DNA of 64,000 nucleotides from Coriobacteriia bacterium (lineage in GTDB: Bacteria > Actinomycetota > Coriobacteriia > Coriobacteriales > UMGS124). The first letter of the stretch is position 1. Each line of letters opens with the position of its first letter. This document shows, one piece after another, positions 6,756-25,262 of the stretch. Where the stretch lies: the NCBI GenBank assembly GCA_018368455.1, contig JAGZEG010000001.1, forward strand, positions 199,276 through 263,275, in the 5' to 3' direction. Position numbers and translations under genes: made by a program. The notes under the pieces were generated by a model that was not told where the DNA came from, did not search any database, and was given only the letters and a program-made list of their open reading frames with translations.

Positions 6756-6772
6756 TCACCGAAAACCGGTGA
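6756..6772. promoter_or_regulatory. Candidate operator (inverted repeat) upstream of the reductase gene
   Basis: TCACCG-aaaac-CGGTGA, perfect 6 bp arms, about 230 nt upstream of the reductase start and downstream of the AraC gene. Confidence 0.2.
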
Positions 6773-6912
6773 TGACATAAATGGTAGCTCTGAGCTGCGG
6801 TGATGATGAGAAGACCTTATCCGGATCCCTACAGGCGTACCCACATGAGGGGATGTGCGAGCCGCTCAGACAGCGGTGAGATGTTGGGATGTCTCTGCTT
6901 TCGACTCGCGAC

Positions 6913-7938: not shown

Positions 7939-8202
7939 GTGCTGTGCCTCTTTGCGGCTGCGGTATTCGTTCGCCTTTTTTCGCCGTGCGTTCGCTGACG
8001 AGCGACATCAAACCAACGGCGTTGAAAAAGCTTATGTTAGCCACGGTTTATTTGCAAGAAGCACGGGTGTGACGGCTAAATGTCCAGATGGTGCGAGCGC
8101 GTTCTGCTAGGCCCGTCAGGCCACCAATGCTAAGACACTCGCGCTGTGGCAGATATGCCGCTGCTGATCAGAACGACCTCACTCGATTGTTTGGAGGATC
8201 CA

Positions 8203-8958
8203 ATGGAACTTACGCGCAGGTCGCTGCTCTCTCTTGCGATGCTTGGCGCTGCCTCGCTTGGCATGACGCCGCTGCTTGCCCACGCTAGCGAGAAGTCCTC
8301 GCAGGACGATGCCGCTACGTCCGAGGGGGCCGTCGTGGCCGCACCCGGCACTCCTGAGGCTGCCGGGCAGCTTATGGAGGCGCTCAATGGCACGTATGTT
8401 GAGCTGTTCCCCGTGCTTAACCAATTCCCGGAGTATTGGGAGGAAGTCGCGGCTTCTATTGTGGGCGAGGCGGATGCCAAAGAGACGGCCGAGATGCTGA
8501 TGGGCGCGTGTGCGGGCGAGATATATGGGCCCGATGCCGTTGAGGCGTATGAGGCTGACCCGGAGTCTGCTGTGTTTGATTGCTATTTCCCCGAGGGGAT
8601 AGAGAAACTGACGTTTGAGGACGGGGCGATTCGCGGCGTCGATTCAAACGGCAATGCCGTGTTCGAGCACGGCTACGAGTTCCTCTGTTACGCACCGTCG
8701 CTCGATTTCTGCGTGTTTCAAACGGGCGACGAGGACGCCGGCGAGTATCGGTACTTTGTGTCGCGCTCCGATACCACGCAGGGGACCTATCACCTCGAGT
8801 TTAGGTTTGGCAGCGATATTGACGCGCTCCTCGACTTGTATGCGGGGGCGTACGCCTATTGGATGCCGGCTGCCATTGACGAAAACTGGGACGAAGATCT
8901 TGCGAAGAAGGGTATCGAGCTTTTCGTGACCGAGAACCTGGCGCCAAGCGAGGAGTAG
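8203..8958 (+). CDS. Tat-signal secreted protein, ZinT/YodA-like lipocalin fold suspected (metal-binding His residues not conserved)
   Basis: ORF track 8146..8958. Start set at ATG 8203, 4 nt after GGAGGA (8193-8198). N-terminus MELTRRSLLSLAMLGAASLGMTPLLAHA. By-eye similarity to E. coli ZinT (recalled sequence): IEKLTFEDG vs IEMIGIEDG, and YRYFVSRSD...YHLEFRFG vs KYIQFSDH...HFHIFMG. Confidence 0.6.
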   Translation: MELTRRSLLSLAMLGAASLGMTPLLAHASEKSSQDDAATSEGAVVAAPGTPEAAGQLMEALNGTYVELFPVLNQFPEYWEEVAASIVGEADAKETAEMLMGACAGEIYGPDAVEAYEADPESAVFDCYFPEGIEKLTFEDGAIRGVDSNGNAVFEHGYEFLCYAPSLDFCVFQTGDEDAGEYRYFVSRSDTTQGTYHLEFRFGSDIDALLDLYAGAYAYWMPAAIDENWDEDLAKKGIELFVTENLAPSEE

Positions 8959-9403: not shown

Positions 9404-11698
9404 TTACGCCTCGTGGTGACGGCGCGGCTGACGGCCCATGCCGCCGCCGTTGCCGCCCTCGGAACGGCCACCGTTGGCGCCGCGGTCGCCGGGGCGACGG
9501 GGCGTGCGGCGCTCGGGACGCTCGCCGCCCTCACGATCGTGCCCGCCGTGACGCTCGTGACGCTCGCCGTTGCCGGAGCCAGCGGGAGCCTCGGGCTTGT
9601 CGATGCGATCGAGCGAGACCTTGCCCTTCTCGTCGACCTCGAGCACCTTGACGTGCACCTCGTCACCGACGTTGAGCACGTCCTCGACCTTCTCTACGCG
9701 GCCCTTCGCGACGCGGCTGATGTGGAGCAGGCCGTCCTTGCCGGGCAGCAGCTCAACGAAGGCGCCAAACGGCTGGATGCCCACGACGCGGCCGAAGTAC
9801 TCCTCGCCCACCTCGGGCTCCTTGACGAGCGCCTCGATGCGGGCGCGCGCCTCCTCGGCGCCGTTGTCGGACGCGCCGATGAAGACGGTGCCGTCTTCCT
9901 GGATGTCGATCTGGGCGCCCGTGTCCTCCTGGATGCCGCGGATCGTCTTGCCGCCGGAGCCGATGACATCGCGGATCTTGTCCGTCGGGATCTTGATCGT
10001 GATGATGTGCGGCGCGTTGTCGCGGACGTCAGGACGAGGCTCAGCGATCTGCTCGAGCATCTTGCCGAGGATGAACGCGCGGCCCTCCTTGGCCTGCTGC
10101 AGCGCGGTGCGCAGGATGTCGAACGTCAGGCCCGTGGCCTTGTTGTCCATCTGCATGGCGGTGATGCCCTCAGGCGTGCCCGTCACCTTGAAGTCCATGT
10201 CACCGAGGAAGTCCTCGAGGCCCTGAATGTCGGAGAGAACGACCGTCTTGCCCTCTTCCTGGATGAGGCCCATGGCGATGCCGGACACGGGGCGCTTGAT
10301 CGGCACGCCGCCGTCCATGAGCGCGAGACAGCTGCCGCACGTCGACGCCATGGACGAGGAGCCGTTGGACTCGAGCACCTCGGACACGACGCGGATCGTG
10401 TAGGGGAACTCCTCCTCGGAGGGGATGACCGGCAGCAGGGCGCGCTCGGCCAGGGCGCCGTGGCCGATCTCGCGGCGCTTGGGGCTGCCCATGCGGCCCG
10501 TCTCGCCGGTGCAGTACGGCGGGAAGTTGTACTGATGAATGTAACGCTTGCCGTCGACGGGCTCGATGGTGTCGAGGCGCTGCCAGTCGTTGAGCATACC
10601 GAGCGTCAGCACGGAGAGCACCTGGGTCTGGCCGCGCTGGAACAGGCCGGAGCCGTGGACGAGCGGCAGGTAGCCAGGCTTGACCATGATGGGGCGGATC
10701 TCGTCGGCGCGGCGGCCGTCAACGCGCTCACCCGTCTCGACGACCATGCAGCGCATGGCGTGCTTCTCGAGGCTCTTGAGCTCGACGGGCAGCTCGCGCT
10801 CGTACTGGGCCTGCTCCTCGTCGGTAAACTCGGCGATGATGGCGGCCTTGAGCTCGGCGACCTTGCCCATGCGCGACAGCTTGTCGGCGTCCTTGAGCGC
10901 GGCGCTCATCTCGTCGTAGTGAGCGAACACTTTGTCGTGGACGTAGGCGTTCGGCTCGTCGAGCGGGTACTCCTTGAGCTGGATGGGGCCGTTTGCTTCC
11001 TCGACCTTCTGGAAGAACACCTTCTGCTGCTCGCAGAACGCGCCGATGGCCTCCTGGCCGAACTGCATGGCGGCCAGCATGTCCTCTTCGGAGATCTCCT
11101 CGGCGCCAGCCTCGAGCATGGAGATGAAGTCGCCGGTGCCGGCGAGCTCGAGGTCGAGGTCAGAGTTGTCGCGCTCCTCGTACGTGGGGTTGACGAGGAA
11201 CTCGCCGGTGTCGCGGTCACGGCCGATGCGGACGCAGGCCAGCGGGCCCTCGAACGGCACGCCGCCGACGGTGAGGGCCGCAGAGGCGCCCATCGTGCAG
11301 ATGACGTCGAACGGGTTCTCCTGGTCGCACACGAACGACGTGGCGACGACCTGAACCTCATTGCGGAAACCGGACGGGAAGCTCGGGCGCAGCGGGCGGT
11401 CGATCATGCGGGCCGTGAGCGTGGCCTTGTCTGTCGGGCGCGTCTCGCGCTTGAGGTAGCCGCCGGGCAGGCGACCCACCGAGTACATCTTCTCGATGAA
11501 GTCGACCGTCAGCGGGAAGAAGTCGTAGTTCTTGCGCTCCTTGGACACGACGGCCGTGACGAGGATGGTCGTGTCGCCCTGCTTGACGAGGCAGGCGCCC
11601 GTGGCCTGCTTGGCCAGCTCGCCGGTCTCGAGGGTGTAGTGCTTGCCGTAGAGGTCGAACTCGTGCGTAACCTTCATGTGTGCTGTGCTCTCTTTCAT
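9404..11698 (-). CDS. pnp: Polyribonucleotide nucleotidyltransferase (PNPase) with Arg/Gly-rich C-terminal tail
   Basis: Two RNase PH-like domains plus KH plus S1 (…YFGRVVGIQPFGAFVELLPGKDGLLHISRVA…). Sits immediately downstream of rpsO. Start ambiguous: ATG 11698 (MKESTAHMKVT) or 11677; the ORF track extends to 11743. Confidence 0.95.
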   Translation of the reverse strand: MKESTAHMKVTHEFDLYGKHYTLETGELAKQATGACLVKQGDTTILVTAVVSKERKNYDFFPLTVDFIEKMYSVGRLPGGYLKRETRPTDKATLTARMIDRPLRPSFPSGFRNEVQVVATSFVCDQENPFDVICTMGASAALTVGGVPFEGPLACVRIGRDRDTGEFLVNPTYEERDNSDLDLELAGTGDFISMLEAGAEEISEEDMLAAMQFGQEAIGAFCEQQKVFFQKVEEANGPIQLKEYPLDEPNAYVHDKVFAHYDEMSAALKDADKLSRMGKVAELKAAIIAEFTDEEQAQYERELPVELKSLEKHAMRCMVVETGERVDGRRADEIRPIMVKPGYLPLVHGSGLFQRGQTQVLSVLTLGMLNDWQRLDTIEPVDGKRYIHQYNFPPYCTGETGRMGSPKRREIGHGALAERALLPVIPSEEEFPYTIRVVSEVLESNGSSSMASTCGSCLALMDGGVPIKRPVSGIAMGLIQEEGKTVVLSDIQGLEDFLGDMDFKVTGTPEGITAMQMDNKATGLTFDILRTALQQAKEGRAFILGKMLEQIAEPRPDVRDNAPHIITIKIPTDKIRDVIGSGGKTIRGIQEDTGAQIDIQEDGTVFIGASDNGAEEARARIEALVKEPEVGEEYFGRVVGIQPFGAFVELLPGKDGLLHISRVAKGRVEKVEDVLNVGDEVHVKVLEVDEKGKVSLDRIDKPEAPAGSGNGERHERHGGHDREGGERPERRTPRRPGDRGANGGRSEGGNGGGMGRQPRRHHEA

Positions 11699-11794
11699 CT
11701 CCGCTCGCCCCATTGCGAGCGGGCCGACTTCGCGCGATGGCACGTTCGTGTGCCCGCGCAGGCCTCCGATGCGGATGCTCGCAGGCCCGATAGC

Positions 11795-11818
11795 AAAAGG
11801 GGGCGGTCGCCCGCCCCC
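11795..11818 (-). terminator. rpsO terminator/attenuator hairpin preceding the pnp leader
   Basis: GGGGGCGG-gcga-CCGCCCCC followed by UUUUGC on the minus strand, 10 nt after the rpsO stop. Confidence 0.7.
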
Positions 11819-11827
11819 TTAGGCTTG

Positions 11828-12103
11828 CTACTTGATGTTGTCGCGGATACCGAGCTTCGCGATGAGCTCGCGGTACTCGTTGATGTCGTTGTCGCGGATG
11901 TACACGAGCAGACGACGACGCTGGCCGACGAGCATCAGCAGGCCACGGCGGCTGTGGAAGTCCTTGTGGTGGGACTTCATGTGCTCGGTCAGCTCCTTAA
12001 TGCGAGCCGTGAGAAGGGCGACCTGAACGCGGGCGCTGCCCGTGTCGTGCTCGTCCTTGCCGAACTCCTTGACGATAGCCGCGCGCTGTTCCTTGGTGAC
12101 CAT
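11828..12103 (-). CDS. rpsO: 30S ribosomal protein S15
   Basis: [69 protein letters not shown]... is the canonical S15 sequence. RBS GGAGGAG. Confidence 0.97.
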
Positions 12104-12244
12104 GTAGCAACTCCTCCACGTAACGTGCGAGCCAGCGATGGGCCCGCGCCTCGCCTGTTCCGATTGGCTCAGGCGGCAGTCGCCTCGATCTGGGTGGGAA
12201 CCTGTGGTTGGATCGCCACCAAGGCCGAGGTCACAAACAAGAAA

Positions 12245-12253
12245 ATGATAGCA
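12245..12253 (-). promoter_or_regulatory. Candidate extended -10 promoter of rpsO (TGcTATCAT)
   Basis: Minus strand cgcgTGcTATCATtttc. It would give a 5' UTR of about 135 nt. The same TGcTAnnAT pattern precedes lepA, rpsT and the rubrerythrin gene. Confidence 0.4.
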
Positions 12254-12423
12254 CGCGGCGTTGTGCCTTTCTGCGAGACGCCGCGCATGCGCTGGCCTGC
12301 ACTAAGCGTCCATTATCGGAAGTATGTCTAGTGGGTAAGGCCATCGCAGTATACAGGCCGCACCTTCGGCTGGCTGGCGCGCTCCGGAGGTCTGGGCCGG
12401 GCGCCAACGGCAGGAGGGCCATC

Positions 12424-12801
12424 GTGGGCGAGACGATTGAGATCGAGAAGCTAGACTGCGCGCTGTCGGTGTGCAAGGTTGCGGACTACTCGCTCGTGGA
12501 CGTAGAGGATGAGTTCTGCTTCACGGGACATACCGATGAGGAGCGCTCTCTCGTCTGCCGTACCGAGTTGGTGCCGGCCAACGCGATCGCGCGCGAGGAC
12601 GGATGGCGCGCGTTTCGCGTCAAGGGCGTGCTCGACTTCTCACTCGTTGGTATCCTGGCACCGATCGCGACGCTGCTGGCGGACAACGGCATAAGCCTGT
12701 CAGCCGTCTCGACGTTCAACACAGACTACGTGCTTGTGAAGCAGGAGAGTTTCGAGCGCGCGCTCGCGCTGCTTGACCAGGCTGGCTATGCGGTGAGCTA
12801 G
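12424..12801 (+). CDS. ACT-domain protein (ACT_7-like)
   Basis: ORF track 12208..12801. Start set at GTG 12424, 6 nt after AGGAGG. The sequence ...WRAFRVKGVLDFSLVGILAPIATLLADNGISLSAVSTFNTDYVLVKQESFERA is typical of small ACT proteins. Confidence 0.7.
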   Translation: MGETIEIEKLDCALSVCKVADYSLVDVEDEFCFTGHTDEERSLVCRTELVPANAIAREDGWRAFRVKGVLDFSLVGILAPIATLLADNGISLSAVSTFNTDYVLVKQESFERALALLDQAGYAVS

Positions 12802-12849
12802 AGTCGTACGCGGCGGGTGCGCATCGGGGCCGCTTGTGCAGGGCGTCTG

Positions 12850-14313
12850 CTAAGCGCCGGTAGGCACAACGCGCGCGTGGAGCAGTCGCGTACGAGGGTC
12901 GTACGACTCGATGCAGGCGCGGACAAGGCCGGGCGTGACGGGTTCGACCATGCCCTGTGGGGCCTCGACGACGGCGCGATGGTAACTGGCCGTCGTACCA
13001 CGGGCAGAGCCGTCTGCGGCGATGCGTTCGACGAGAACGGGCTCGACCGTACCCACGCGTGCTGCGGCGTCTGTGGCGCGCAGCTCATCGGCCAAGGTGC
13101 GCAGGCGTTCGGAGCGGACCTGCGCCACGCGGGGATCCACCTGGTTGGGCATGGACGCGGCCGGCGTGTCGGGCCGTGCTGAGAAGCGAAAGACGTGCAT
13201 CTTCGAAAAGCGCATCTCGCGGCAGAACGCGAGCGTCTGCTCGAACTCCTCGTCCGTCTCGCCGGGGAACCCGACGATGACGTCCGTCGACAGCGAGAGC
13301 TCGGGCAGCTCGCTGCGTACCATCTCGACAACGTCGGCGAAGGTCTTCGTGTCGTAGGCGCGTCCCATGCGCGCGAGCGTCGCGTCGCAGCCGGACTGCA
13401 GCGGCAGGTGCAGGTGGGGACAGACGACGCCGCGCAGCTCCGCCATGGCGTGCGCGAGCTCGGGCGTCACGTCGGGCGGCTCGATGCTCGAGGCGCGCAC
13501 GATGGCGCGCTCCCTCGCCAGGTCGGACACCCTGCGCAACAGGCCGTCGAGGGCGATGGGCGCCCCGTCGGGGGCGGTGTCCCGATAGCGGCCCAGGTTG
13601 ATGCCCGAGAGCACGACCTCGCCGGCGCCTTCGGCTAGCACGGTGCCCACCTGGCGCTCGACTTCGGGAAGCGGCGACGAGCGCACCGGGCCGCGGGCGC
13701 GCCACACGATGCAATACGTGCAGCGGTTGTCACAGCCGTCCTGCACCTTGACGCCGCGGCGTAGGCGCGTCTCGTAAGTCGATGCCTCGTGGCCGTGGGA
13801 GACGGCGGGGGTGGTTGGCGCCGCGGCGACCGAGACGCTCTCTGTGGGATTGGCGGCCGCTGTGCTATCAGGCGCGAGGCAGCCGTGTTCCGCGCTTTCT
13901 GCACCGACACGCGCCTGCTCGTCAAACAGCCGCAGCGCCTCGCGAGCCACGTTTGCCTTGTCAGCGACGACGTGCACGCGCTCGCCCAGGGCGCGCGCCT
14001 CTTCGGGGAACAGGTTGGCGACGCATCCCGTCACGCACACGAGCGGGCGCTGGGGCAGGCTCACCGCGTGTCGGATGGCCTTGCGCGTCTTGGCCTCGGC
14101 CTCGCCCGTGACGGCGCACGTGTTGATCACGACAATGTCGGCGCTTCCCTCCCCTGCCGGTTCGCAGCCGAGCTCAGAGAGGGAGCGTTCCATCCAGTCG
14201 CTTTCGATGCGGTTGACCTTGCAGCCAAGGTTGACGACGCACGCCTTCACGCGGCGGGTGCTCACGGCAGACCGCGCTCTCGCTACGACAGTGCGTCGCG
14301 CAGGCGCTGCCAC
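12850..14313 (-). CDS. mtaB: Radical-SAM methylthiotransferase, MtaB-like (tRNA t6A37 methylthiolation)
   Basis: N-terminal UPF0004 cysteines ([24 protein letters not shown]). Radical SAM motif [18 protein letters not shown]-like C-terminus. Start uncertain: the ORF start overlaps the dnaJ 3' end by 31 nt, and GTG 14265 is an alternative. Confidence 0.85.
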
Positions 14314-15428
14314 GGCTTGCGGCTTGGCTTGCAGCCGTCTTTGCCGTCGAGCTGCTCGGCCAGCTCCTTCATGAGCTTACGCTGGTACTCCGTCAGCTTC
14401 TTCGGCACGACGACGTCGACGTGGGCCAGCAAGTCGCCGCGGCCCGAGCGGCCGACGCGCGGCATGCCCATGCCCTTGACGCGCACGACGTCGTCAAACT
14501 GGCAGCCGGCTGGGATGTCGACCGTGACCGTCTCGTCGGGCAGGATGCCCTCGACCTCGAGCGTCGTTCCCAGCGTCGCTTGCGTGATGGACGCCTCGAC
14601 GCGCATGTGCAAGTCATCCCCGTCGCGCTGGAAGTTCTTGTCGCCTGAGACCGCCACGGTGACGATGAGGTCGCCCGTGTGGGCGCCGCGCACGCCAGCC
14701 TCGCCTGCGCCGGAGATGCGCACCTGCTGGCCGTCGCGAATGCCGGCGGGAACCTCGACGCTCACGCGCTCGCGGTCAGGTGCGCGACCCTCGCCGTCAC
14801 AGTCGGGGCAGGGCTTGTCGATTTTCTGGCCTGTGCCGTTGCAGTCCGGGCACACGGAGCGCGTCTGCATCTGGCCGAGGAACGTGCGCTGCGTCGTGAC
14901 GACCTGGCCGGTGCCGTGGCACGTGGGGCACGTCACGTTCTTGCTGCCCTCGGCGCAGCCCGACCCCTCGCACGTCTTGCACGGGGCCATGCGGTTGTAG
15001 GCGATCTCCTTCGTGCAGCCCGTCGCGGCCTCCTGCAGCGTGATGCGCACGGTCGCACCCATGTCTCGGCCGTCCATGCGCACGGCGCGCCCGCCCGCCC
15101 CGCCGGCTGAGCCGGAGAAGAACGAGCTGAACAGATCGCTCATGTCAAAGCCGCCGAAAATGTCGCCGATGTCCGGGCCGCCCTGGCCATAGCCGTCGAC
15201 GCTCCCGTAGCGATCGTAGTACTCGCGCTTTTGCGGATCGGACAGCACGGCGTACGCCTCGTTGACCTCCTTGAAGCGCTCCTCGGCGTCGGGGGCCTTG
15301 TTGATGTCGGGGTGTAGCGTGCGCGCCTTCTGGCGGAACGCCTTCTGGATGTCGGACTCGCTTGCGTTGCGGTCGAGGCCGAGAATGGCGTAGTAGTCCT
15401 TAGGGGATGCGGAACCGGGCATGGCCAA
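14283..15428 (-). CDS. dnaJ: Molecular chaperone DnaJ (canonical type I)
   Basis: J domain with HPD (TLHPDINK), a G/F region, four CxxCxGxG repeats and a complete C-terminal domain (…[30 protein letters not shown]…). Confidence 0.93.
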
Positions 15429-15583
15429 CCTTCTCTTGCGTGCTCCCGCGGCCCCTGGCGAGGCAACGTGCGGGAGGGCGCACCTGCGGACCTGAGTCGA
15501 GGCGCGCCGTTTCCTTAGACGTTTTCAGCCTTTGAATACTATCGCGGGGACATCGGATGAAACGGGCCTTCACTATATGAACA

Positions 15584-15617
15584 GGCCCCGGGACGACCGC
15601 ACGGCTGTCCCGGGGCC
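15584..15617 (-). terminator. Terminator of the membrane-anchored dnaJ-like gene
   Basis: Perfect 11 bp stem GGCCCCGGGAC / GTCCCGGGGCC with a 12 nt loop, followed on the minus strand by UGUUCAUAUAG. Starts 15 nt after the stop codon. Confidence 0.6.
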
Positions 15618-15631
15618 TGCGTGCCTGCGCG

Positions 15632-16732
15632 CTAGATGAAGAGGCGCGAGCACGACATGAGCGGCATGAGCAAAATGAACATGAACAGGCCGATGACGAG
15701 GCCGAAGCCGATGCGTCGTGCCGCGCGGTTCCAGAAGCTGCCGCCCTTCTTGCGCCCACCCATCGGGAACATGAAGAAGATGAAGAACAGCGGCAGGGCG
15801 AAGAACGAGAGCAGGCGCAGGATGGTCCCGGCGAACAGCGAGCACAGAACGAGGGCGAGAACGACGCCGAGCACCGTGAATCCAAACTCCTGGGAGCTTG
15901 TGAGGTGCTCGGAGGGAACGGTGAGCTCCGCCTCGAGATCCCCCTGCGCGCCGCCGCAGCGACCGGCGTCGCCGGCGCCCTTGACGCGCAGCACGGCGCC
16001 GTCGTGCGAGCCGGCGGGGATGTGGATGGCGACTGTAGCGCGGCGCAGACGAGTGCCCGAGCCGGAGCACTCGGGGCACAGGTCCTTGATGACCTTGCCG
16101 CTGCCGTTGCACTCGGGGCAGCGCATCGTCTGCTGCACGTCACCCATGAACGTCGTGAGGCGCGCGTTGACGGATCCCTTGCCGTGGCACGTCGGGCACG
16201 TGACGATGCCGTCGGAGGACTGGGTGCCCCGGCCCCCGCAGCTCGTGCACGCCTCGAAGCGCTCGAACGAGATCGTCTTCGTGGTGCCGTGTCGTGCCTC
16301 GTCCGCCTCGAGCGTCAATGAGATGCGACGGGATCCGCCGGGTTCGGTGGAGAAGGGCGCCGTGTTTGAGCGGCGCCGGCTTGCGGAGGCCTGGCCTGCA
16401 GCGCCGGCAAACGGGCCCCAGAACGGACCAAACGGGTCGAACGGCATGCCACCGAAGGGGGAGCCGCCCGTGGAGCCTCCAGCGCCGCCCGCGTAGGGAT
16501 TCTGCGTCGTGAAGCCCCCGGCGCGAATGACGTCGTAGCGCTGGCGCTTACCCGGGTCGGACAGCGTCTCGTACGCCTCAGAGAGCTCCTTGAAGCGCTC
16601 CTCGGCGTCGGGAGCCTTGTTGACGTCGGGGTGCATCGTCGCGGCCTTCTTGCGGAAGGCCTTCTTGATGTCGTCTGTGGAGGCGTCTTTGGGGACGCCG
16701 AGGATGTCGTAGAAGTCTTTGGTGTCTGCCAC
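15632..16732 (-). CDS. DnaJ-like protein: J domain + G/F + zinc finger + partial CTD-I, with a C-terminal three-helix membrane anchor
   Basis: GTG start 16730-16732. (M)ADTKDFYDILGVPKDASTDDIKKAFRKKAATMHPDVNK. Zinc-finger repeats CTSCGGRG, CPTCHGKG, CPECNGSG, CPECSGSG. The C-terminal 90 aa contain FGFTVLGVVLALVLCSLFAGTIL, LLSFFALPLFFIFFMFPMG and IGFGLVIGLFMFILLMPLM. Confidence 0.85.
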   Translation of the reverse strand: MADTKDFYDILGVPKDASTDDIKKAFRKKAATMHPDVNKAPDAEERFKELSEAYETLSDPGKRQRYDVIRAGGFTTQNPYAGGAGGSTGGSPFGGMPFDPFGPFWGPFAGAAGQASASRRRSNTAPFSTEPGGSRRISLTLEADEARHGTTKTISFERFEACTSCGGRGTQSSDGIVTCPTCHGKGSVNARLTTFMGDVQQTMRCPECNGSGKVIKDLCPECSGSGTRLRRATVAIHIPAGSHDGAVLRVKGAGDAGRCGGAQGDLEAELTVPSEHLTSSQEFGFTVLGVVLALVLCSLFAGTILRLLSFFALPLFFIFFMFPMGGRKKGGSFWNRAARRIGFGLVIGLFMFILLMPLMSCSRLFI

Positions 16733-16845
16733 GTGTGGCCGGCCTATCCCTCGGTACGAAGCGGGGCAAGCCGGTTGAGGGCCGGGTGAGCACCCGCGAA
16801 AACGTGCTGGGGATATTCTACCCAGCGCAGGGCGGCAACACGAAA

Positions 16846-17155
16846 CGCCCAGAATGCCGAGGTGTTTTCAGGAAAGCGGGCCAGGGTTTAACGCGCGCTT
16901 CCGGAGGTGCCATGCAGGCGGGCTCGGATTGCGGTTCTGCAGGGTTTTGCAAAACGGGGGCGCGAATTTGGGCGTGAAACGCGGCTGTGCTGGGTTTGCC
17001 TGCTAGAAATCTGCGCGGCTTCTGGTGGCTTTTGGAGGTATGCCGTTCTAGCCTGCGTGTTTCGCGTGCGCCCCGTGGACAGCTGCTCCTTTCGGTTCGC
17101 GCAAACCTGGCACAAAAGAAATGCGCGCCCAAAATGATGGGCTGGTTTTGCATAA
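16846..17155. repeat. Non-coding degenerate repeat modules (left flank of flavoprotein gene)
   Basis: Modules shared with 19283-19505:
- GATTGCGGTTCTGCAGGGTTTTGCA (16927-16951)
- GAATTTGGGCG (16964-16974)
- GTGCTGGGTTT (16987-16997)
- TCTGCGCGG (17010-17018)
- CGCGCCC..GGTTTTGCA (17124-17152)
Includes the 12 bp palindrome GTTTTGCAAAAC (16944-16955). Confidence 0.45.
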
Positions 17156-17499
17156 CATTGCTGAAGCGTGGATCTTGCCAGGCTGCTGGGGTGCACGGAA
17201 GCAGGGAAGCGGCACGTCGTGCAGGTGAAGAGCTTAGCGGGGGACGTGGTGGTCGCCGTAGTTGCGCGTCGATGCTTTCTTGCGAGGCGAGCAAAGCGAT
17301 TGGTGGCGTGTGATCAGCTGTCGACATTCACCGGCACATTACGAAGCGCTCAGCGACTGTATCGAAAAAGGTGCTTCACATAGTTTTCACATTGATGCAT
17401 GATGTGCGTTGTCCGGTTCGCAGTGCGATATAGGGATCGCGAGGCGAAGCGTGGCATTGCACTCGACCACGAAACACAAGGTAAAGGGGGACGTATCTG

Positions 17500-19182
17500 A
17501 TGGAGCAAACCAATCTCACGCGTCGTTCGTTCGTTGCCGGTGTTGCTGGTTCTACTGGTGTTGTGCTTGCCTCTATGGCGGCGCACGATGCTTTGGCGGC
17601 AGGGGCAGCTTCCGATCCCAACGGCCAGGCGCCGACGGGCGAGCTGCCCTGGCTCGGTGCCGAGCCTGAGATCTCCGATGCCGATGTCGAGCAGGAAGTT
17701 AGTGTTGATGTGGTTGTCATCGGATGCGGACTGGCAGGCACGCTTGCTGTGCGTTCGGCCGCAGAAGAGGGCGCGACGGTAGCGGCGTTCGAGAAGGGCG
17801 ATGGCGTTCAGGCTCGAAGCGGCGAGTACGCCATTGTTGGTGGTACCCTCGCCGGGCGATGGGGACGCGAGGAGTTCGACATCGATATGCTCGTCGAGCA
17901 CGAGATGGACGAGTGCTCCTACTTCCCGAAGCGCACGATCTGGCGAAAGTACTTCGAACATGGCGCCGAGGTGTTTGACTGGTATATCGGGGCGAAGGAA
18001 GACATCGTCATCCTCGACACGTCTGACCAAGAGGCACCGGCTGACGCCGAGGCTGTCGTGCGCCCATTCTTTGTGCCAATGATCAACGACTACGATTGGA
18101 CGACCGAGCAGCATCCCTGTTTCCCGAGTTCGCTCATCATTGAGCCGAGCCACGTGCCGGTCATTCAGGCAAACATGAACAAAGCCATCGAGGCAGGTGC
18201 CCAGACGTTCTACGGTCACTTCGTCGAGAAACTTATCATGGAGGACGGCCGCTGCACGGGCTGCTATGCGCGCAATGCCGAGACGGGAAAGTACGTCAAG
18301 GCAACGGCGTCCAAGGGCGTCATTCTGGCTACGGGAGACTACGGCAGCAATCCTGACATCATCCAATACTACTGCCCCGAGGTCATTGCCAATGGCATCA
18401 CGGAACTCTGGATGAACCAGGACGTCGAGGGCAATCCGACGAACACGGGTGACGGCCTAAAGCTCGGTGCGTGGGCAGGTGCGGCAATCCAGCAGCATCA
18501 CGCGCCGATGATCCACCATATGGGCAACACGCCTGACGGTGCTCAGGGCCCGCTTGGCATCGATCCCTACCTGCGCCTCAACAAGGCTGGCCAGCGCTTC
18601 ATGAACGAGGACTGCCCCGGGCAGCAGACTGAGAATCAGATGGAGAATCAGCAGGACCACACTGCCTATATGATCTGGGATGCCAACTGGCAGGAACAAA
18701 TCAAGAGCTTCCCTGCTGCCCACGGCCTGAAGTACGACGCCACGCAGGAGACGATCGATGCGGCCGTCGAGGCGGGCCAGGTTTATAAGGCCGACACACT
18801 TGAGGAGCTGTTTGGCCTTGTTGACATTGATGCCGAAGCGGCGCTCGCTTCGGTTGAGCGCTACAACGAGCTTGCAGCGAAGGGCAAGGACGAAGACTTT
18901 GGCAAGAAGGCGTCACGTCTGTTTGCTCTGGACACGCCGCCCTACTACATTCAGCCGATGGGCCTTTCCCCGATGCTCGTGTGCATAGGCGGCCTGGAGA
19001 GCGACGAGGAGTGCCACGTGTACAGCTCCGATCGTACGGTCATTCCTGGCCTGTATGCGTGCGGTAACATCCAGGGTAACCGCTTTGCCGTGCAATATCC
19101 TATTGGCTTCAAGGGCGTGAGTCACGGTCTCTGCATGTACTACGGGTACGTCGCAGGAAAGAACGCAGTGGCACAGAAGTAG
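17500..19182 (+). CDS. Tat-exported FAD-dependent reductase (flavocytochrome c / fumarate reductase superfamily), no FMN_bind domain
   Basis: MEQTNLTRRSFVAGVAGSTGVVLA (Tat signal). VDVVVIGCGLAGTLAVRSAAEEGA (FAD fold). VIPGLYACGNIQG near the C-terminus. RBS AAAGGGGGA. Many A/T-ending codons compared with neighbouring genes. Confidence 0.85.
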   Translation: MEQTNLTRRSFVAGVAGSTGVVLASMAAHDALAAGAASDPNGQAPTGELPWLGAEPEISDADVEQEVSVDVVVIGCGLAGTLAVRSAAEEGATVAAFEKGDGVQARSGEYAIVGGTLAGRWGREEFDIDMLVEHEMDECSYFPKRTIWRKYFEHGAEVFDWYIGAKEDIVILDTSDQEAPADAEAVVRPFFVPMINDYDWTTEQHPCFPSSLIIEPSHVPVIQANMNKAIEAGAQTFYGHFVEKLIMEDGRCTGCYARNAETGKYVKATASKGVILATGDYGSNPDIIQYYCPEVIANGITELWMNQDVEGNPTNTGDGLKLGAWAGAAIQQHHAPMIHHMGNTPDGAQGPLGIDPYLRLNKAGQRFMNEDCPGQQTENQMENQQDHTAYMIWDANWQEQIKSFPAAHGLKYDATQETIDAAVEAGQVYKADTLEELFGLVDIDAEAALASVERYNELAAKGKDEDFGKKASRLFALDTPPYYIQPMGLSPMLVCIGGLESDEECHVYSSDRTVIPGLYACGNIQGNRFAVQYPIGFKGVSHGLCMYYGYVAGKNAVAQK

Positions 19183-19209
19183 TGTTTGCTAGACATAACG
19201 AGTATGCAC

Positions 19210-19250
19210 GACCCCGGAGGCGTGGGATGCTCCGGGGTCGCGTTTGTCTT
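19210..19250 (+). terminator. Intrinsic terminator of the flavoprotein gene
   Basis: Perfect 10 bp stem GACCCCGGAG (19210-19219) / CTCCGGGGTC (19230-19239), followed by GCGTTTGTCTT. Confidence 0.7.
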
Positions 19251-19282
19251 GAGGGGTCGCTTGGCTTCGCTTCTGCTGGTCA

Positions 19283-19505
19283 GAATATTCGGATGTGCTG
19301 GGTTTTGTATTTTGAGGCTCTGAATTTGGGCGCAGATTGCGGGTCTGCAAGGTTTGCAGAGACCTCTGCGCGGGGCGCTGCTCGGGTGGTGGGGCTTGAC
19401 CTGCGGGAATGGTTTGCTTGCTCTCATTCGAAGCCCGATTCCTTGGCGCAAAGCTAGCATAGCCGTAAAACGCGCCCGATTTTGGGAGGCCGGTTTGCAA
19501 AAGCT
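19283..19505. repeat. Non-coding degenerate repeat modules (right flank of flavoprotein gene)
   Basis: Modules shared with 16846-17155, partly in a different order:
- GTGCTGGGTTT (19295-19305)
- GAATTTGGGCG (19322-19332)
- GATTGCGGGTCTGCAAGGTTTGCA (19335-19358)
- TCTGCGCGG (19365-19373)
- CGCGCCC..GGTTTGCAAA (19471-19501). Confidence 0.45.
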
Positions 19506-19559
19506 TGCAGAGTCGTCAAATCTGGCCGAGGGAAGTAGGCGCGAGCAGGCTTTGCGAAG

Positions 19560-21029
19560 CTATGCGAGATCCCAGAACGCCTCGTAGAGCTCGTTGCCGA
19601 GGAGCCAGCCTTGCTCGGTGGGAGCGAGGCGGCCTTCGGGTGTACGAATTGCAAGGTCGCGTGCTTCGACGTCTGCGAGAGCGGCGTCGAGGGCGGTACC
19701 CATGACGCCGCGGGCGCGTGCGAGTAGATCAGTCCCCACCCCCGCGCTCATGCGCATGCCGAGCATAAGGTCCTCTGCTAGGGCCTCGCGCTTTGAGAGC
19801 GTTTCGACGGCTATGTGGAGCGGGGCGTTCTCGCGCACAGCATCCGTGAGCCTTCTGGCGTTGTCGGTCAAGCGGATGCGGACCCGGGCGATGTGATCCT
19901 CACTCGCAGCTAAAGCGCGCTTGGCAAGGATGACTCCCGGTATAGCGAAGAGCCGGTCGCCCAGATCGCATGGCTTGTCCGAGGCACCGGAACTTGCTCG
20001 GACATCGCGTGCCGCTACTGTCGACTCGGCGTCTCCCCACAGCTCGGGGTCGGCGGCCGCTGGATCCTCGGGGGCGCACAGCAGTGGCAGGGCTTCTGCC
20101 AGCGCGGCGAACTCCTGCGGCGTCAGCATGCTGGCGGCCGATGTTCCCAACCCTAGGTAGCTTCGGCCTGTCCAGTAGGCGATGTTGTGCTGGCAGACAT
20201 GGCCAGGCCGCGCGTAACTTGCGACTTCGTAGCGCGTCAGGCCCGCTCTCGACAGGACGCGTTCGGCCACGAGCATAAGGTCTGCCTCCGCGTCGTCCTC
20301 GGGCCACACCTCCTCCCCTGACTCGCATGCGCGCCACAGCGGAGTGCCCTCCTCGACCATGAGGGGGTAACAGCTCACATGAGAGGCGCCGGCGTCGAGT
20401 ACGCCGTGCAGGGAGGCTTCGAGGCTTTCGGCCGTCTGCAGGGGTGTGGCGCACATGAGATCGCACGAGAGGTCGAGCCCTGCGTCGCGCACGGCAGATG
20501 TCGCCTGCAACGCGCGGGTGCGGTCGTGAACGCGGCCGAGACGCGCGAGTTCGGCGTCATTGAGTGATTGCACGCCGAGGGATATGCGGGTGAGTCCTGA
20601 CTCAGCCAGGGAGCGGACGAGATCAACATCAAGCGACTCGGGGTTTGCCTCGGAGGAGAACTCTCCTAGGGGGCTTCCGGCTTGTCGACAGGCAGCAGAA
20701 GCCTCGCGAACGAGCTCCGCAAGGTCGGCTCCTGCCATAGTGGGTGTCCCTCCCCCCACATAGGCAGTTTTGATGCTTGCGAGAAGCCCACTCTTCCCCG
20801 CCCTGCGAACCAGCGAGCGCAGCGCACCCACATACGCCCCAATGAGCGGATCCTCATGCGGCACAGCTGAAGTGGAAAAGTCGCAATACCGACACCGCGC
20901 GACACAAAAGGGCACGTGCAGGTAGAGGGCTGAAACACCTGTATCACATGTGCTTGCCACCCGGATCGCCCCCGTCGGTCTCTCTTCTCTATCTGCGGCT
21001 CCTCTGCCGCAACCACGGCTGTGGAGCAC
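19560..21029 (-). CDS. hemW: Radical-SAM HemW/HemN-like protein (heme chaperone / coproporphyrinogen oxidase family)
   Basis: LYLHVPFCVARCRYCDFS radical-SAM motif. Position next to lepA is typical. Start uncertain (GTG 21029 or GTG 20960). Carries an insertion relative to typical 380 aa HemW proteins. Confidence 0.85.
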   Translation of the reverse strand: MLHSRGCGRGAADREERPTGAIRVASTCDTGVSALYLHVPFCVARCRYCDFSTSAVPHEDPLIGAYVGALRSLVRRAGKSGLLASIKTAYVGGGTPTMAGADLAELVREASAACRQAGSPLGEFSSEANPESLDVDLVRSLAESGLTRISLGVQSLNDAELARLGRVHDRTRALQATSAVRDAGLDLSCDLMCATPLQTAESLEASLHGVLDAGASHVSCYPLMVEEGTPLWRACESGEEVWPEDDAEADLMLVAERVLSRAGLTRYEVASYARPGHVCQHNIAYWTGRSYLGLGTSAASMLTPQEFAALAEALPLLCAPEDPAAADPELWGDAESTVAARDVRASSGASDKPCDLGDRLFAIPGVILAKRALAASEDHIARVRIRLTDNARRLTDAVRENAPLHIAVETLSKREALAEDLMLGMRMSAGVGTDLLARARGVMGTALDAALADVEARDLAIRTPEGRLAPTEQGWLLGNELYEAFWDLA

Positions 21030-21162
21030 CTGCGCACAAGGGACGGCGCGGCAGGTGGTCCGCCGCGAGTTCCGCAGTGCCCGGCGCTTTATGCCGGGCG
21101 ATACGAGGACTGTCTGAGCGCCGGATTACCTGCCGCGCCATCCCGACCAAGCGGAAACAGCA

Positions 21163-22167
21163 TTACAGCATCCCGTGCGCGCGGCAGGCCGCCTCCATCT
21201 CGTCTATCAGCACCTCGTAGTCGTGCTCGTCACAGCATTCCATGGAGCGGGCGCGCCACGTGCTCGCGGCTGGCAGGCCCTTCACGTACCAGCCGACCAT
21301 TGGGCGCAGCCGAGCCATGTGACTGCCCCGCTCGGCAAAGCGCCGCACGTGCGTGCGCAGGGCGTCGAGGCGCTGGGTTATCGTCGGCTCAGGAGGAAGG
21401 GATCCCGTGCGTAGCAGGGCTTCCGCACGTGCGAAGAACCAAGGGTTACCGTAGCTGCCACGTGCCACAAACACGCCGGAGCACGCCGTCGTCTGGAGCA
21501 GCGCCACAGCGTCGACCGGCTCGAATACGTCGCCCGAGCCGATAACGGGCACGTCGACGCTGCGAGCAACATCGTCGATGACGCGCCAGTCAGCATGTCC
21601 ACGATAGAGCTGTCCGGCGCTGCGCCCGTGCACGGCGACGCCGCAAGCCCCGCTCGCCTCCATGCGTTGGGCGAACTCGGGCGCAAGAACCTCGTCGGAG
21701 CGGATACCGGCGCGGATCTTCACCGTGACGGGCACGCGCCCCGCAACGCCGCGCACCGTGGCCTCAAGGCACGCAGCGGCGACGTCGGGCGTGCCCATGA
21801 GGGCGCAACCCTCGCCTTTCTTGAACACCTTGGGCACGGGACACGCCATGTTGATGTCGACAAGTGCGAGACGATGGCCGAGGCGCTCGCACACCTGTGC
21901 CGCGCCCGCCTCGAACTGCTCGGGCTTGTTGCCAAACAGCTGCACGGCAACCTGGTCCTCGTCGGGCGCGGGCTCCACGAGCTCCCAGGTACGCTCGGAA
22001 TCGAAGGCGAGGCCCGCGACGGAGACCATCTCGGTGTACGCGAGAGGACATCCGTGGTCGCGGGCTATTGAGCGGTACGTCGCGTCCGTCACGCCGGCCA
22101 TGGGCGCAAGCATGAACGGGTGGGCCGCCAGGCGCTCGCGAAGCGCTTTGACCTGGTCGTTCGCCAC
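21163..22167 (-). CDS. dus: tRNA-dihydrouridine synthase
   Basis: FMLAPMAGVTDATYRSIARDHGCPLAYTEMVS and INMACPVPKV motifs. GTG start directly abuts the lepA stop. Confidence 0.9.
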   Translation of the reverse strand: MANDQVKALRERLAAHPFMLAPMAGVTDATYRSIARDHGCPLAYTEMVSVAGLAFDSERTWELVEPAPDEDQVAVQLFGNKPEQFEAGAAQVCERLGHRLALVDINMACPVPKVFKKGEGCALMGTPDVAAACLEATVRGVAGRVPVTVKIRAGIRSDEVLAPEFAQRMEASGACGVAVHGRSAGQLYRGHADWRVIDDVARSVDVPVIGSGDVFEPVDAVALLQTTACSGVFVARGSYGNPWFFARAEALLRTGSLPPEPTITQRLDALRTHVRRFAERGSHMARLRPMVGWYVKGLPAASTWRARSMECCDEHDYEVLIDEMEAACRAHGML

Positions 22168-23976
22168 TTATTCGTCCACCTTGAGGATGGCCATGAACGC
22201 CTCCTGCGGCACATCGACGGCGCCGATGGCCTTCATGCGCTTCTTGCCTTCCTTCTGCTTCTCGAGCAGTTTGCGCTTACGCGAGATGTCGCCGCCGTAG
22301 CACTTGGCCAGCACGTCCTTGCGAACGGCGCGCACGGTCTCGCGTGCAATGACGCGTCCACCGATAGCCGCCTGGATGGCGACCTCGAACTGCTGGCGCG
22401 GGATGATCTCCTTGAGCTTTTCGCACAGCACGCGGCCGCGGGCCTGAGCCTTGTCGCGATGCACGATGAACGACAGGGCGTCCACCTTCTCGCCGGCCAG
22501 CAGGATGTCGAGACGGACGAGCTCGCTTGCCCGGTAGCCGCAGTACTCGTAGTCAAGCGAGGCGTACCCACGCGTGCGGCTCTTGAGCTGGTCGAAGTAG
22601 TCCATGATGAGCTCGGACAGCGGCATCTCCCAGTGCATCTCGACCGTTGTCGGCGAGAGGTACACCATGTTGTTGAACGTGCCGCGGTGGTCGATCGTCA
22701 GGTCCATGACGGCGCCCACGTAGTCCGGTGGTACGAGCACCTTCACGGTGAGATAGGGCTCCTCGATGCGGTCGAGGCCGGAGGGATCGGACATCTCCTG
22801 GGGAGAGTCGACCTCGATCATCTCGTGATTGCGCAGGTAAGCGTGGTACTCGACCGACGGGGCTGTCGCGATGAGGTCAAGGTTGAATTCGCGCTCAAGG
22901 CGCTCCTTGACGACCTCGAGGTGCAGCAGGCCGAGGAAGCCGACACGGAAGCCAAAGCCGAGCGCGACGCTCGTCTCGGGCGTGTAGACGATAGCGGGGT
23001 CGTTGAGCGACAGCTTGTCGAGAGCGTCGCGCAGGTTCTCGAAGTCCTCGGTGTCGATCGGGAAGATGCCCGTGTACACCATCGGCTTGACCTCGCGATA
23101 GCCCGGCAGCGGCTCGGCGGCGGGCTTGCGAGCGTCCGTGACCGTGTCGCCGACGCGCACGAGCAGCGGGTCCTTGAGGCCGGTGATGAGGTAGCCGACC
23201 TCCCCGACGCCCAGATCGGGCAAAGGTGTGTTGGCCGGACGGCGGCAGCCGACCTCCTCGACCTCGAGTTCCAGGCCCGTGCTCATGAGACGCACCTTCT
23301 GGCGCGCGCGGATAGAGCCGTCAACGACGCGGATGAGCGCGACGACGCCGCGGTACGCGTCGAAGTGCGAGTCGAAGATGAGCGCCTTGAGCGGGGCATC
23401 GGGGTCACCAACCGGCTCGGGGATGTCGCGCACGACGGTCTCGAGCAGGTCGTGGATGCCCAGGCCCGTCTTGCCCGAGACAGCGCAGGCGTCGTCGCAC
23501 GGGATGGCGAGGCCTTCCTCGATCTCGGCCTTCGTGCGCTCGACATCTGAGGAAGGCAGGTCGACCTTGTTGATGGCCGGCACGATCTCCAGGCCGGCGT
23601 TCATGGCGAGCAGGGCGTTGGAGACGGTCTGTGCCTCGACGCCCTGTGTGGAGTCCACGACAAGAACGGCGCCCTCGCACGCGGCAAGGGAGCGCGAGAC
23701 CTCGTAGGCAAAGTCGACGTGTCCGGGCGTGTCGATGAGGTTGAACTGGTAGGTCTGGCCGTCGTCTGCCTCGTACATGACGCGAACGGCCTGGCTCTTG
23801 ATCGTGATGCCTCGTTCGCGCTCGATGTCCATGGAGTCGAGCAGCTGGGCCTCCATGTCGCGCTCGGCCACGGTGTGTGTCTGCTCGAGGATGCGATCCG
23901 CGATCGTCGACTTGCCGTGGTCGATGTGGGCGATGATGGAGAAGTTCCTGATGTGTGAAGGCGTGTCTGTAGGCAT
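22168..23976 (-). CDS. lepA: Translation elongation factor 4 (LepA)
   Basis: [28 protein letters not shown]..., DTPGHVDF and NKVD GTPase motifs. ORF-track start trimmed to ATG 23974-23976. Confidence 0.96.
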
Positions 23977-23985
23977 AGTGACAAG

Positions 23986-23994
23986 ATGATAGCA
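23986..23994 (-). promoter_or_regulatory. Candidate extended -10 promoter of lepA (TGcTATCAT), near-leaderless
   Basis: Minus strand gtcTGcTATCATcttgtcactATG. The -10 element ends 9 nt before the ATG and no SD is present. Confidence 0.4.
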
Positions 23995-24167
23995 GACGGC
24001 CCGCCGCCGCGCACGGAGCGCGATGGCGGGCCGCAAGAACAACAAGGCGGCACGGGCGGCCGGGCCTTATGGCATCGCGGGCGTGTGGGTGTCCGCCTCC
24101 TTCTGGCCTGTGCGGACCATCTTGTAGGCATAGTGGCCTGCGACCTTCCGACTGCCGGGGCTCATGC

Positions 24168-25109
24168 CTATTGTGGTTGACAGCCGTTCTGGGCCGCGCC
24201 GTCGTTCGTGCCTCGGGAGGCCCGTGCTACCGGGCGCGATGGCTCTCTCAGGCGTTGCCCGAGCCACGATGCGAAGCTTGCCGCGGTGCTGTCGCGAGGC
24301 ACCCCCTCGCGCGTCACGAGATAGAGAGGGACGTCGAGGGAGTCTCGCTCCACGAGCGGGACAACGGCTAGGCCCGGGGTGACGGCAATCATAGGATGGC
24401 CGCGCGGCACGAACGCCACCCCCTCGCCACCCTGCGCCGCCTGAAAGTAGAATCGCATCGGAACGGTGCGAAACGTGGGCGAGAAGCCGTAGGGCACGCA
24501 TCGCTGGCGTATAAGCTCCACCGTGTACTCCCGGTCGGGCGGCGTGAGCAGCGTGACGTTGCGCAGGTCGTCGAACGAGAGCTCGCCGAGGGACGCCAGG
24601 GGACTGTCCCCTGCGAGCACCGCGACGGTCTCGCCGCGCCGCACGAGCTGGCCGTCGAGGCCGGGCATCTGCGGGGGGCCGGGCACGAACGCCACGTCTG
24701 CCTGCCCGTCTGCGACGAGCGACAGGCAGCGCGCCCGCGACCCCTCGACCATCCCGGCGCGCACGTCGGGGCATGCGCGCTCGAAGTCGGAGAAGTCCAC
24801 GTCCGTGAGGCTGTCCGTCGTCGCGGCGAGCGTGACGCTGGCCACGCCTGCCCCCATGCGCCGTATCTGCCCGGGCAGCGCGTCGACCTCGCGCAGGATG
24901 AGCGTTCCCCGGTCGGCGAGCAGCCGGCCCTGCGGCGTGGGGGCCACTCCCCTGCTGCCGCGTTCGAGGAGCCTGCAGCCGAGCTCCTCCTCGAGCTTGC
25001 GCACGGCGCTCGAGATGGTCTGCTCCGTCACGTACAGCGCGCTGGCGGCGGCCGTGACGTTTCCCGTCTCGCACGTCTTGCAAAAGTATCGCAGCTGCCG
25101 CAACTCCAT
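24168..25109 (-). CDS. LysR-family transcriptional regulator
   Basis: MELRQLRYFCKTCETGNVTAAASALYVTEQTISSAVRKLEEELGCRLLERGSRGVAPTPQG is the canonical LysR wHTH. It is the 3' third of the spurious 932 aa track ORF. Transcribed divergently from the flavoprotein gene. Confidence 0.9.
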   Translation of the reverse strand: MELRQLRYFCKTCETGNVTAAASALYVTEQTISSAVRKLEEELGCRLLERGSRGVAPTPQGRLLADRGTLILREVDALPGQIRRMGAGVASVTLAATTDSLTDVDFSDFERACPDVRAGMVEGSRARCLSLVADGQADVAFVPGPPQMPGLDGQLVRRGETVAVLAGDSPLASLGELSFDDLRNVTLLTPPDREYTVELIRQRCVPYGFSPTFRTVPMRFYFQAAQGGEGVAFVPRGHPMIAVTPGLAVVPLVERDSLDVPLYLVTREGVPRDSTAASFASWLGQRLREPSRPVARASRGTNDGAAQNGCQPQ

Positions 25110-25140
25110 GATTCCCCCAGCCATCGGCGCCATGGCACAA

Positions 25141-25161
25141 ATTATAGCTGTCCTCGCCCTA
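25141..25161 (-). promoter_or_regulatory. Candidate lysR promoter -10 (TATAAT) overlapping a T-N11-A type dyad
   Basis: Minus strand TATAAT = 25141-25146, 31 nt upstream of the LysR ATG. Plus strand TAG-N11-CTA at 25145-25161. Confidence 0.35.
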
Positions 25162-25262
25162 GAGACGTTTGTTTCACTTGCGGCCGGGCGCCCTCCAAAA
25201 TCATGTCCGGGGCTCGCCCACATGGGTGTGCCCGCCACTGGCCTTGTATTGAGGAGGATGTC

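Follow-up and report, generated by a model that had tools for sequence, protein, structure and literature searches.

We describe a family of J-proteins from Coriobacteriales-type Actinobacteria in which the N-terminal, client-binding part of a class A DnaJ is joined to a conserved hydrophobic tail of three predicted transmembrane (TM) helices. The member from which the analysis started is encoded by a gene, here called dnaJ-TM, within a stretch of 64,000 nucleotides (nt) from a Coriobacteriia bacterium (GCA_018368455.1, contig JAGZEG010000001.1, positions 199,276 to 263,275); this whole stretch is referred to as the window. We consider it probable, at about 0.7, that the product of dnaJ-TM is a functional co-chaperone of the J-domain type that is anchored in the membrane; the gene was most likely derived by tandem duplication from the class A dnaJ beside it. 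The protein is identical to NCBI entry MBS5449772.1, 'DnaJ domain-containing protein [Coriobacteriia bacterium]', and the identical sequence occurs on five independent contigs. Coordinates of the gene, its domains and the associated signals are collected in Table 1.

Much of the class A plan is retained in the dnaJ-TM protein: a J domain with its HPD motif, a glycine/phenylalanine-rich (G/F) linker, a zinc finger with four repeats, and the first of the two C-terminal domains (CTD-I). Among 116 homologues, H34-P35-D36 is invariant, as are seven of the eight zinc-finger cysteines, C179 being retained in at least 90%. The G/F linker (14 glycines and 6 phenylalanines in 50 residues) carries a near-invariant F101 and a G106-P107-F108 motif. 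Two class A elements, CTD-II and the dimerisation helix, are absent. The Pfam DnaJ_C match, at residues 136-276, covers only profile positions 2-77 of 152, which correspond to CTD-I, and positions 78-152, which correspond to CTD-II, are unmatched. The protein also falls short of the curated equivalog TIGR02349 (DnaJ_bact), which it matches over profile positions 1-259 of 354 with 249.5 bits against a cut-off of 377.2, and it scores under the cut-offs of all other NCBIfam DnaJ equivalogs. The canonical DnaJ encoded next to it passes TIGR02349 across the full model length with 390 bits; the HPD motif and all four CxxCxGxG motifs are found by regular expression in both genes. Rather than a DnaJ equivalog, the dnaJ-TM protein is a class A derivative in truncated form. 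An earlier reading of the window's sequence, hereafter the original prediction, had anticipated the DnaJ, DnaJ_CXXCXGXG and partial DnaJ_C matches, all of which were found, and had proposed that the protein belongs to no named family, in agreement with the lack of a curated model for it in Pfam and NCBIfam.

The predicted structure has the same order of parts. An AlphaFold2 monomer model built from the 116-sequence alignment (mean predicted local distance difference test score, pLDDT, 86.4) consists of a J domain, a G/F segment that is disordered at residues 75-119, a beta-rich CTD-I with the zinc finger inserted in it, and three long helices. In a Foldseek search of the PDB, CTD-I with the zinc finger superposes over about 150 residues on Streptococcus pneumoniae DnaJ (6jzb), DNAJA2 (7zhs) and Ydj1 (1nlt), and many J domains are matched as well. 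In most members of the Atopobiaceae type (e.g., P0002 and P0045-P0120 among the homologue matches), a precomputed annotation assigns the Pfam accession PF27659.1 to the stretch that separates the J domain from the zinc finger.

Beyond CTD-I the protein is strongly hydrophobic. Kyte-Doolittle analysis gives three 19-residue segments, at 287-305, 308-326 and 341-359 (means 2.67, 1.91 and 2.53), and no comparable segment in the canonical DnaJ. The model places helices at 279-299, 301-321 and 333-365, with pLDDT mostly above 90 in this block, so that Pfam, hydropathy and AlphaFold2 together support the domain series ending in a three-helix anchor that had been read from the open reading frame (ORF). 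The loop between the second and third segments, RKKGGSFWNRAARR, contains six lysines or arginines and no acidic residue. This asymmetry is general: over the 116 members the TM2-TM3 loop averages 4.5 lysines or arginines and 0.5 acidic residues, against 0.3 lysines or arginines in the TM1-TM2 turn of 2-3 residues, which upholds the positive-inside argument made initially for the single protein. An N-terminal signal sequence is absent from the dnaJ-TM protein, and the J domain must meet cytosolic Hsp70; the N-terminus would therefore be cytoplasmic and the C-terminus outside. The predicted topology is an N-terminus inside the cell, a TM1-TM2 hairpin, a basic loop on the inner side, and a third helix running outwards to an extracytoplasmic Ser-Cys tail.

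Column statistics for the 116 members indicate that conservation of the tail exceeds plain hydrophobicity. In the juxtamembrane motif VPSE[HR]LT, E275 is present in 115 members and L277 in 108. G289 in TM1 is invariant, P314 in TM2 is found in 74 of the 116, the position 333 in the basic loop is aromatic in every member and W334 is kept in 88. In the GxxxG motif of TM3, G344 is invariant and G348 occurs in 99. Immediately after TM3 come Ser360 (92 of 116) and Cys361 (111 of 116). The chain continues for another 3 to about 20 residues, which in members of the Atopobiaceae type are frequently aromatic or basic.

The near-invariant Ser-Cys pair at the predicted outer end of TM3 might be a site of modification. 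One specific form of this idea is that TM3 and Ser-Cys constitute an internal lipoprotein-type signal, with the cysteine lipid-modified or the chain cleaved there. The arrangement of a basic stretch, about 20 uncharged residues and x-x-S-C, in a helix that would run from inside to outside like a signal peptide, is in keeping with such a signal. However, a permissive Gram-positive lipobox pattern fits only 32 of the 116 members, the commonest motif (MFSC) has an atypical residue at -2, and one homologue (P0011) has no cysteine at all. Known lipoprotein signals are moreover N-terminal, whereas this one would be internal, and we judge the lipoprotein explanation very unlikely.

A different concern is that a truncated copy adjoining an intact dnaJ might be a dnaJ pseudogene, a dnaJ with a frameshift or a product of misassembly. 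The adjacency is the sole support for that explanation. In a search of 5.8 billion proteins, nearly all of the 120 matches listed cover 98-100% of the query, and the tail is retained in more than 115 full-length homologues (36-99% identity) and can be followed throughout in alignments of 20 and of 116 members. The ratio of nonsynonymous to synonymous substitution rates (dN/dS; Nei-Gojobori method, locus DNA) for the tail is 0.05-0.47 in 11 of 12 pairs and 0.86 in the most diverged pair. The tail is thus below 1 in all twelve comparisons and is under purifying selection, although often under weaker constraint than the N-terminal domains. When the canonical CTD-II was compared by tblastn with positions 15430-16100 in six frames, the only match was to the in-frame CTD-I, and no CTD-II remnant appeared. 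CTD-I is a known internal repeat of CTD-II. The presence of the same protein on independent contigs, and of the full-length tail in at least 173 genome loci (described below), also speaks against decay or misassembly. Homologue coverage, dN/dS and the tblastn result rule out a pseudogene or frameshift, and we assign this explanation a negligible probability, as the original prediction had argued from the other reading frames of the window.

The relationship of dnaJ-TM to its neighbour suggests how it arose. BLASTP aligns the two window paralogues at 42% identity over residues 2-272 of the dnaJ-TM protein, and the alignment ends exactly at the last strand of CTD-I. The canonical gene lies downstream across an intergenic gap of 203 nt; both the colinearity up to the tail and the gap had been noted correctly at the outset. 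The adjacency of the paralogues and their near-identical J-domain motifs speak for a tandem duplication of dnaJ, after which the C-terminal half of one copy would have been replaced. As judged from the sequences, the duplication of the adjacent class A gene most likely took place in an ancestor of Coriobacteriales. The source of the replacement is not apparent in the databases, in that a phmmer search with the tail (residues 266-366) against 1.84 billion representatives returned five matches, all of them family members or fragments, and Pfam finds no domain in the tail across all 116 members. The membrane module is thus specific to the family.

We propose that the dnaJ-TM protein works with DnaK on clients at the membrane. 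The retained J domain with HPD, G/F linker, zinc finger and CTD-I are the parts needed for activating DnaK and holding an unfolded client, and the family-specific three-helix module takes the place of CTD-II and the dimerisation helix. Such a protein would concentrate activation of the DnaK ATPase, and capture of clients, on the cytoplasmic side of the membrane. It would probably attend to membrane proteins or pre-secretory proteins while these are being inserted, assembled or quality-controlled, and the neighbouring soluble DnaJ would take care of the cytosol at large. The loss of the dimerisation domain may be offset by restriction of the protein to the membrane or by packing between its glycine-rich TM helices. 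What leads us to a DnaK- and client-related role at the membrane is the combination of an invariant HPD motif, invariant or near-invariant zinc-finger cysteines, an intact CTD-I, a constrained TM module and a canonical dnaJ gene that obligately co-occurs. The analysis itself establishes the architecture and its conservation, the purifying selection, the synteny and the helical, hydrophobic character of the tail; insertion into the membrane, topology, partnership with DnaK and the nature of the clients are inferred.

Several considerations weigh against a membrane-tethered general co-chaperone. E. coli DnaJ and Ydj1 need the C-terminal dimerisation region for full chaperone activity; given that CTD-II and this region are absent, the dnaJ-TM protein may be a weak general chaperone, perhaps with one dedicated client. 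The tail, with its invariant glycines, WW/FW loop and Ser-Cys, is more conserved than a passive anchor requires, which may reflect a specific partner. Nor does the genomic setting, made up of housekeeping genes, point to particular clients. Finally, membrane insertion and topology are predictions from hydropathy, from the bias in charge and from an AlphaFold model of the monomer.

These points lead to the main rival of a membrane-tethered general J-protein, namely a dedicated adaptor, in which the three-helix module would dock or sense and so tie DnaK to a single membrane machine or substrate. Examples would be a translocon or insertase, a protease (e.g., FtsH) or a membrane-sequestered regulator, and the protein would then be akin to specialised class C J-proteins. 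The conservation of the tail at E275, G289, P314, the aromatic pair 333/334, GxxxG and S360-C361 is consistent with an adaptor, as are purifying selection on the tail, the lack of tail homologues outside the family, and the loss of dimerisation and of the CTD-II client sites. On the other hand, no conserved membrane-protein gene lies nearby, the complete client-binding unit of zinc finger and CTD-I is kept as in the generalist class A proteins, and the conserved glycines could serve intramolecular packing alone. We hold a dedicated adaptor to be possible, though rather unlikely. The same tentative standing applies to the broader suggestion that the tail is a lineage-specific functional module, coupling DnaK to a defined membrane machine or sensing the state of the membrane. 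If that were true, dnaJ-TM would encode the first J-protein of the class A type in bacteria to have been integrated into the membrane for one dedicated function.

The distribution of the family was assessed by scanning one genome per GTDB species for the pattern G[MA]G[DN]AG[TR][NC]G[GSA], with confirmation by tblastn based on the alignment of CTD-I plus tail. This gave at least 173 genome loci with dnaJ-TM, of which 80 were compared for gene order, promoters, terminators and operators. The 80 loci are labelled Atopobiaceae, Coriobacteriaceae, Olsenella, Collinsella, Atopobium, Parafannyhessea, Thermophilibacter, Tractidigestivibacter, Parolsenella, or uncultured Coriobacteriales or Coriobacteriia. 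Other labels (e.g., Oscillospiraceae, Bacteroidaceae) are attached to seven contigs of metagenome-assembled genomes (MAGs), which are probably mis-binned, and as far as seen the family is restricted to Coriobacteriales-type Actinobacteria. Tblastn with the window's neighbour proteins revealed a stable order, lepA-dus-hemW-[dnaJ-TM]-dnaJ-mtaB, with rpsO-pnp farther along; parts of it are present in all 80 loci except the incomplete L015 and L016, and a full-length dnaJ follows directly downstream of dnaJ-TM wherever the flank is long enough. That the gene belongs to a widespread, conserved family with a fixed synteny goes beyond the original prediction.

The original prediction also speculated that the protein is a holdase and DnaK recruiter specifically for pre-proteins of the twin-arginine translocation (Tat) and Sec pathways encoded nearby. 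In the window, the hemW-dnaJ-TM junction is interrupted, directly upstream of dnaJ-TM, by an oppositely oriented gene (17500-19182, plus strand) for a flavoprotein reductase (FAD_binding_2) that carries a twin-arginine signal (TRRSFV), and it is plausible that a J-protein facing the membrane would encounter pre-secretory clients. However, L008 is the only other locus with the flavoprotein gene at this junction. The remaining loci lack it, and in more than 70 of them dnaJ-TM lies among housekeeping genes, purely so in the well-represented Atopobiaceae-type genomes; no sequence feature points to recognition of signal peptides. Service to nearby Tat/Sec precursors therefore loses its basis in gene context; such clients could form a subset of those of a membrane-anchored co-chaperone, and the conserved context adds nothing to the idea, which we regard as improbable.

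The hemW-dnaJ-TM junction varies in other ways. The flavoprotein gene of the window is flanked by spacers of 768 nt (16733-17499) and 377 nt (19183-19559) with a lower G+C content (0.56-0.61). The spacers contain no convincing ORF, an Rfam scan of 11000-24000 found nothing, and a search for repeats around the gene gave nothing significant, the best being a 21-nt match at 90%. Some Olsenella-type loci have a 162-residue ORF resembling cytidine/dCMP deaminases (HAE...PCxxC) between hemW and dnaJ-TM, for example at 6692-7180 (plus strand) of L012. In other Actinobacteria, hrcA occupies the position between hemW and dnaJ; no hrcA is present at this junction in L012. One locus (L001, CAIFEU010000006.1) has two tandem copies of dnaJ-TM, at 5991-7100 and 7299-8396, whose proteins differ at the N-terminus and are identical past about residue 40; the pair reflects either a very recent duplication, gene conversion or an artefact of MAG assembly. 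Farther away in the window, a 932-residue ORF (24168-26966, minus strand) has LysR helix-turn-helix and substrate-binding domains confined to its last 310 residues, and the long stretch ahead of these domains probably reflects over-calling of the ORF in DNA of high G+C content.

Upstream of dnaJ-TM there is a conserved -10-like element. Its 9-mer in the window, GGGTAGAAT, is present there as a single copy. In 19 loci GGGTANAAT is the single plus-strand match, always upstream of dnaJ-TM and within about 150 nt of the start of the tblastn match. The exact form GGGTA(N)AAT is found a single time in each stretch of 13-64 kb, always a short distance upstream of dnaJ-TM (e.g., L002 7218-7226 and L004 7270-7278), and looser -10-like variants are found upstream of the gene in other loci. 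GGGTA(N)AAT is probably the -10 consensus of the lineage, with a striking conservation at dnaJ-TM, where the element looks like a conserved and dedicated signal. Similar boxes, GGGTATAA or GGGTAGAG, precede the canonical dnaJ in several loci.

Operators of heat-shock regulators were also sought. The controlling inverted repeat of chaperone expression (CIRCE), with up to three mismatches allowed, is absent from the window, no HspR-associated inverted repeat (HAIR) lies near dnaJ-TM in the window, and neither has a consistent position across the 80 loci. The lack of a CIRCE or HAIR operator fits constitutive rather than stress-only expression. As to the end of the transcript, the gene had been credited with its own terminator. 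There is indeed a hairpin after the stop codon in the window, without a U tract; however, a structured region at this position is found in only 22% of loci. The hairpin is specific to the window's lineage, and a terminator after dnaJ-TM is not a conserved trait of the family. Loci of the Atopobium type have a mere 45 nt or so between dnaJ-TM and the start of the next dnaJ, which suggests that the two genes are co-transcribed there.

Table 1. Position of dnaJ-TM, its predicted domains and associated features in the window
Feature	Residues	Position	Strand	Remarks
Canonical full-length dnaJ	381 aa	14283..15428	-	tandem paralogue of dnaJ-TM
G+C-rich hairpin past stop codon		15581..15623	-	-44.5 kcal/mol, z = -4.6; terminator-like, no U tract
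dnaJ-TM gene	366 aa + stop codon	15632..16732	-	GTG start
C-terminal S360-C361 + five residues		15635..15655	-	predicted extracytoplasmic
TM helix 3 (predicted)	341-359	15656..15712	-	G344xxxG348
Basic loop (PMGGRKKGGSFWNRAARR)	323-340	15713..15766	-	predicted cytoplasmic
TM helix 2 (predicted)	~304-322	15767..15823	-	model helix 301-321
TM helix 1 (predicted)	~283-300	15833..15886	-	model helix 279-299
Juxtamembrane linker PSEHLT	273-278	15899..15916	-	conserved
Rest of CTD-I	227-272	15917..16054	-	final stretch colinear with canonical DnaJ
Zinc-finger-like region	162-226	16055..16249	-	Pfam DnaJ_CXXCXGXG, E 1.5e-14; four CxxCxGxG
CTD-I first strands	133-161	16250..16336	-	Pfam, AlphaFold2 model, Foldseek
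G/F-rich linker	71-120	16373..16522	-	composition; disordered in model
J domain	6-67	16532..16717	-	Pfam DnaJ, E 6e-26; H34-P35-D36
-10-like element GGGTAGAAT		16815..16823	-	conserved; 83 nt upstream of GTG

The family bears on a broader question, because membrane-tethered J-proteins are how cells aim a general Hsp70 machine at particular places. Its members are found in Collinsella, Olsenella, Atopobium-type bacteria and relatives, common inhabitants of the gut, mouth and vagina of humans and animals, and dnaJ-TM offers a tractable entry to membrane proteostasis in these little-studied Actinobacteria. It further serves as a natural experiment that asks whether a J-protein restricted to two dimensions can do without CTD-II and dimerisation. 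The architecture is clean and testable. We found no description of the combination of J domain, zinc finger, CTD-I and three TM helices in the literature searched; Barriot et al. (2020), the one systematic survey of J-protein architectures in bacteria, may already list it.

dnaJ-TM can be compared with several known types of J-protein. With class A DnaJ (E. coli DnaJ, Thermus thermophilus 4j80, S. pneumoniae 6jzb and the window's own dnaJ) it shares the N-terminal J domain with HPD, the G/F linker and the CxxCxGxG repeats within CTD-I, and it differs in having three predicted TM helices instead of CTD-II and the dimerisation helix. E. coli DjlA is membrane-anchored and acts with DnaK; it has an N-terminal TM segment, a C-terminal J domain and no zinc finger, and its domain order is the reverse of that in dnaJ-TM. 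The NCBIfam DjlA model (NF006948) matches only 32 residues of the J domain (E 4e-4, 20 bits, cut-off 162). The plant plastid proteins OR and LQY1 combine a DnaJ-type CxxCxGxG zinc finger with TM helices N-terminal to the finger; they have no J domain and so do not activate Hsp70. Compared by description, they have the finger and TM helices in common with dnaJ-TM. E. coli DjlB and DjlC have an N-terminal J domain, a single TM segment and HscC as Hsp70 partner, with no zinc finger or CTD-I. Again by description, both are anchored C-terminally, as dnaJ-TM would be, which has a zinc finger, CTD-I and three predicted TM helices. The original prediction had ascribed the opposite layout, without a zinc finger, to DjlA, DjlB and DjlC alike; with respect to domain order this holds for DjlA but not for DjlB and DjlC, which are tail-anchored J-proteins (PMC8215388).

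The farnesylated class A J-proteins of eukaryotes (Ydj1, DNAJA1/A2 and plant ANJ1) are modified by CaaX isoprenylation (PMC5597180). Like dnaJ-TM they combine zinc finger and CTD-I with a C-terminal membrane tether; they keep CTD-II and the dimerisation domain, however, and their tether is a reversible lipid tail, whereas that of dnaJ-TM would be an integral three-helix anchor, with no evolutionary link between the two. By analogy, these eukaryotic proteins and the membrane J-proteins of E. coli appear to be the nearest functional counterparts. Membrane-tethered J-proteins as such are known; what seems to be new is a conserved, uncharacterised class-A-type variant with a predicted integral anchor. 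To our knowledge, the known bacterial membrane J-proteins (DjlA, DjlB and DjlC) lack a client-binding unit of zinc finger and CTD-I. The dnaJ-TM family would indicate that bacteria, too, have anchored a client-binding J-protein of the class A type, in parallel with Ydj1 and the DNAJA proteins and by means of an anchor that was invented independently.

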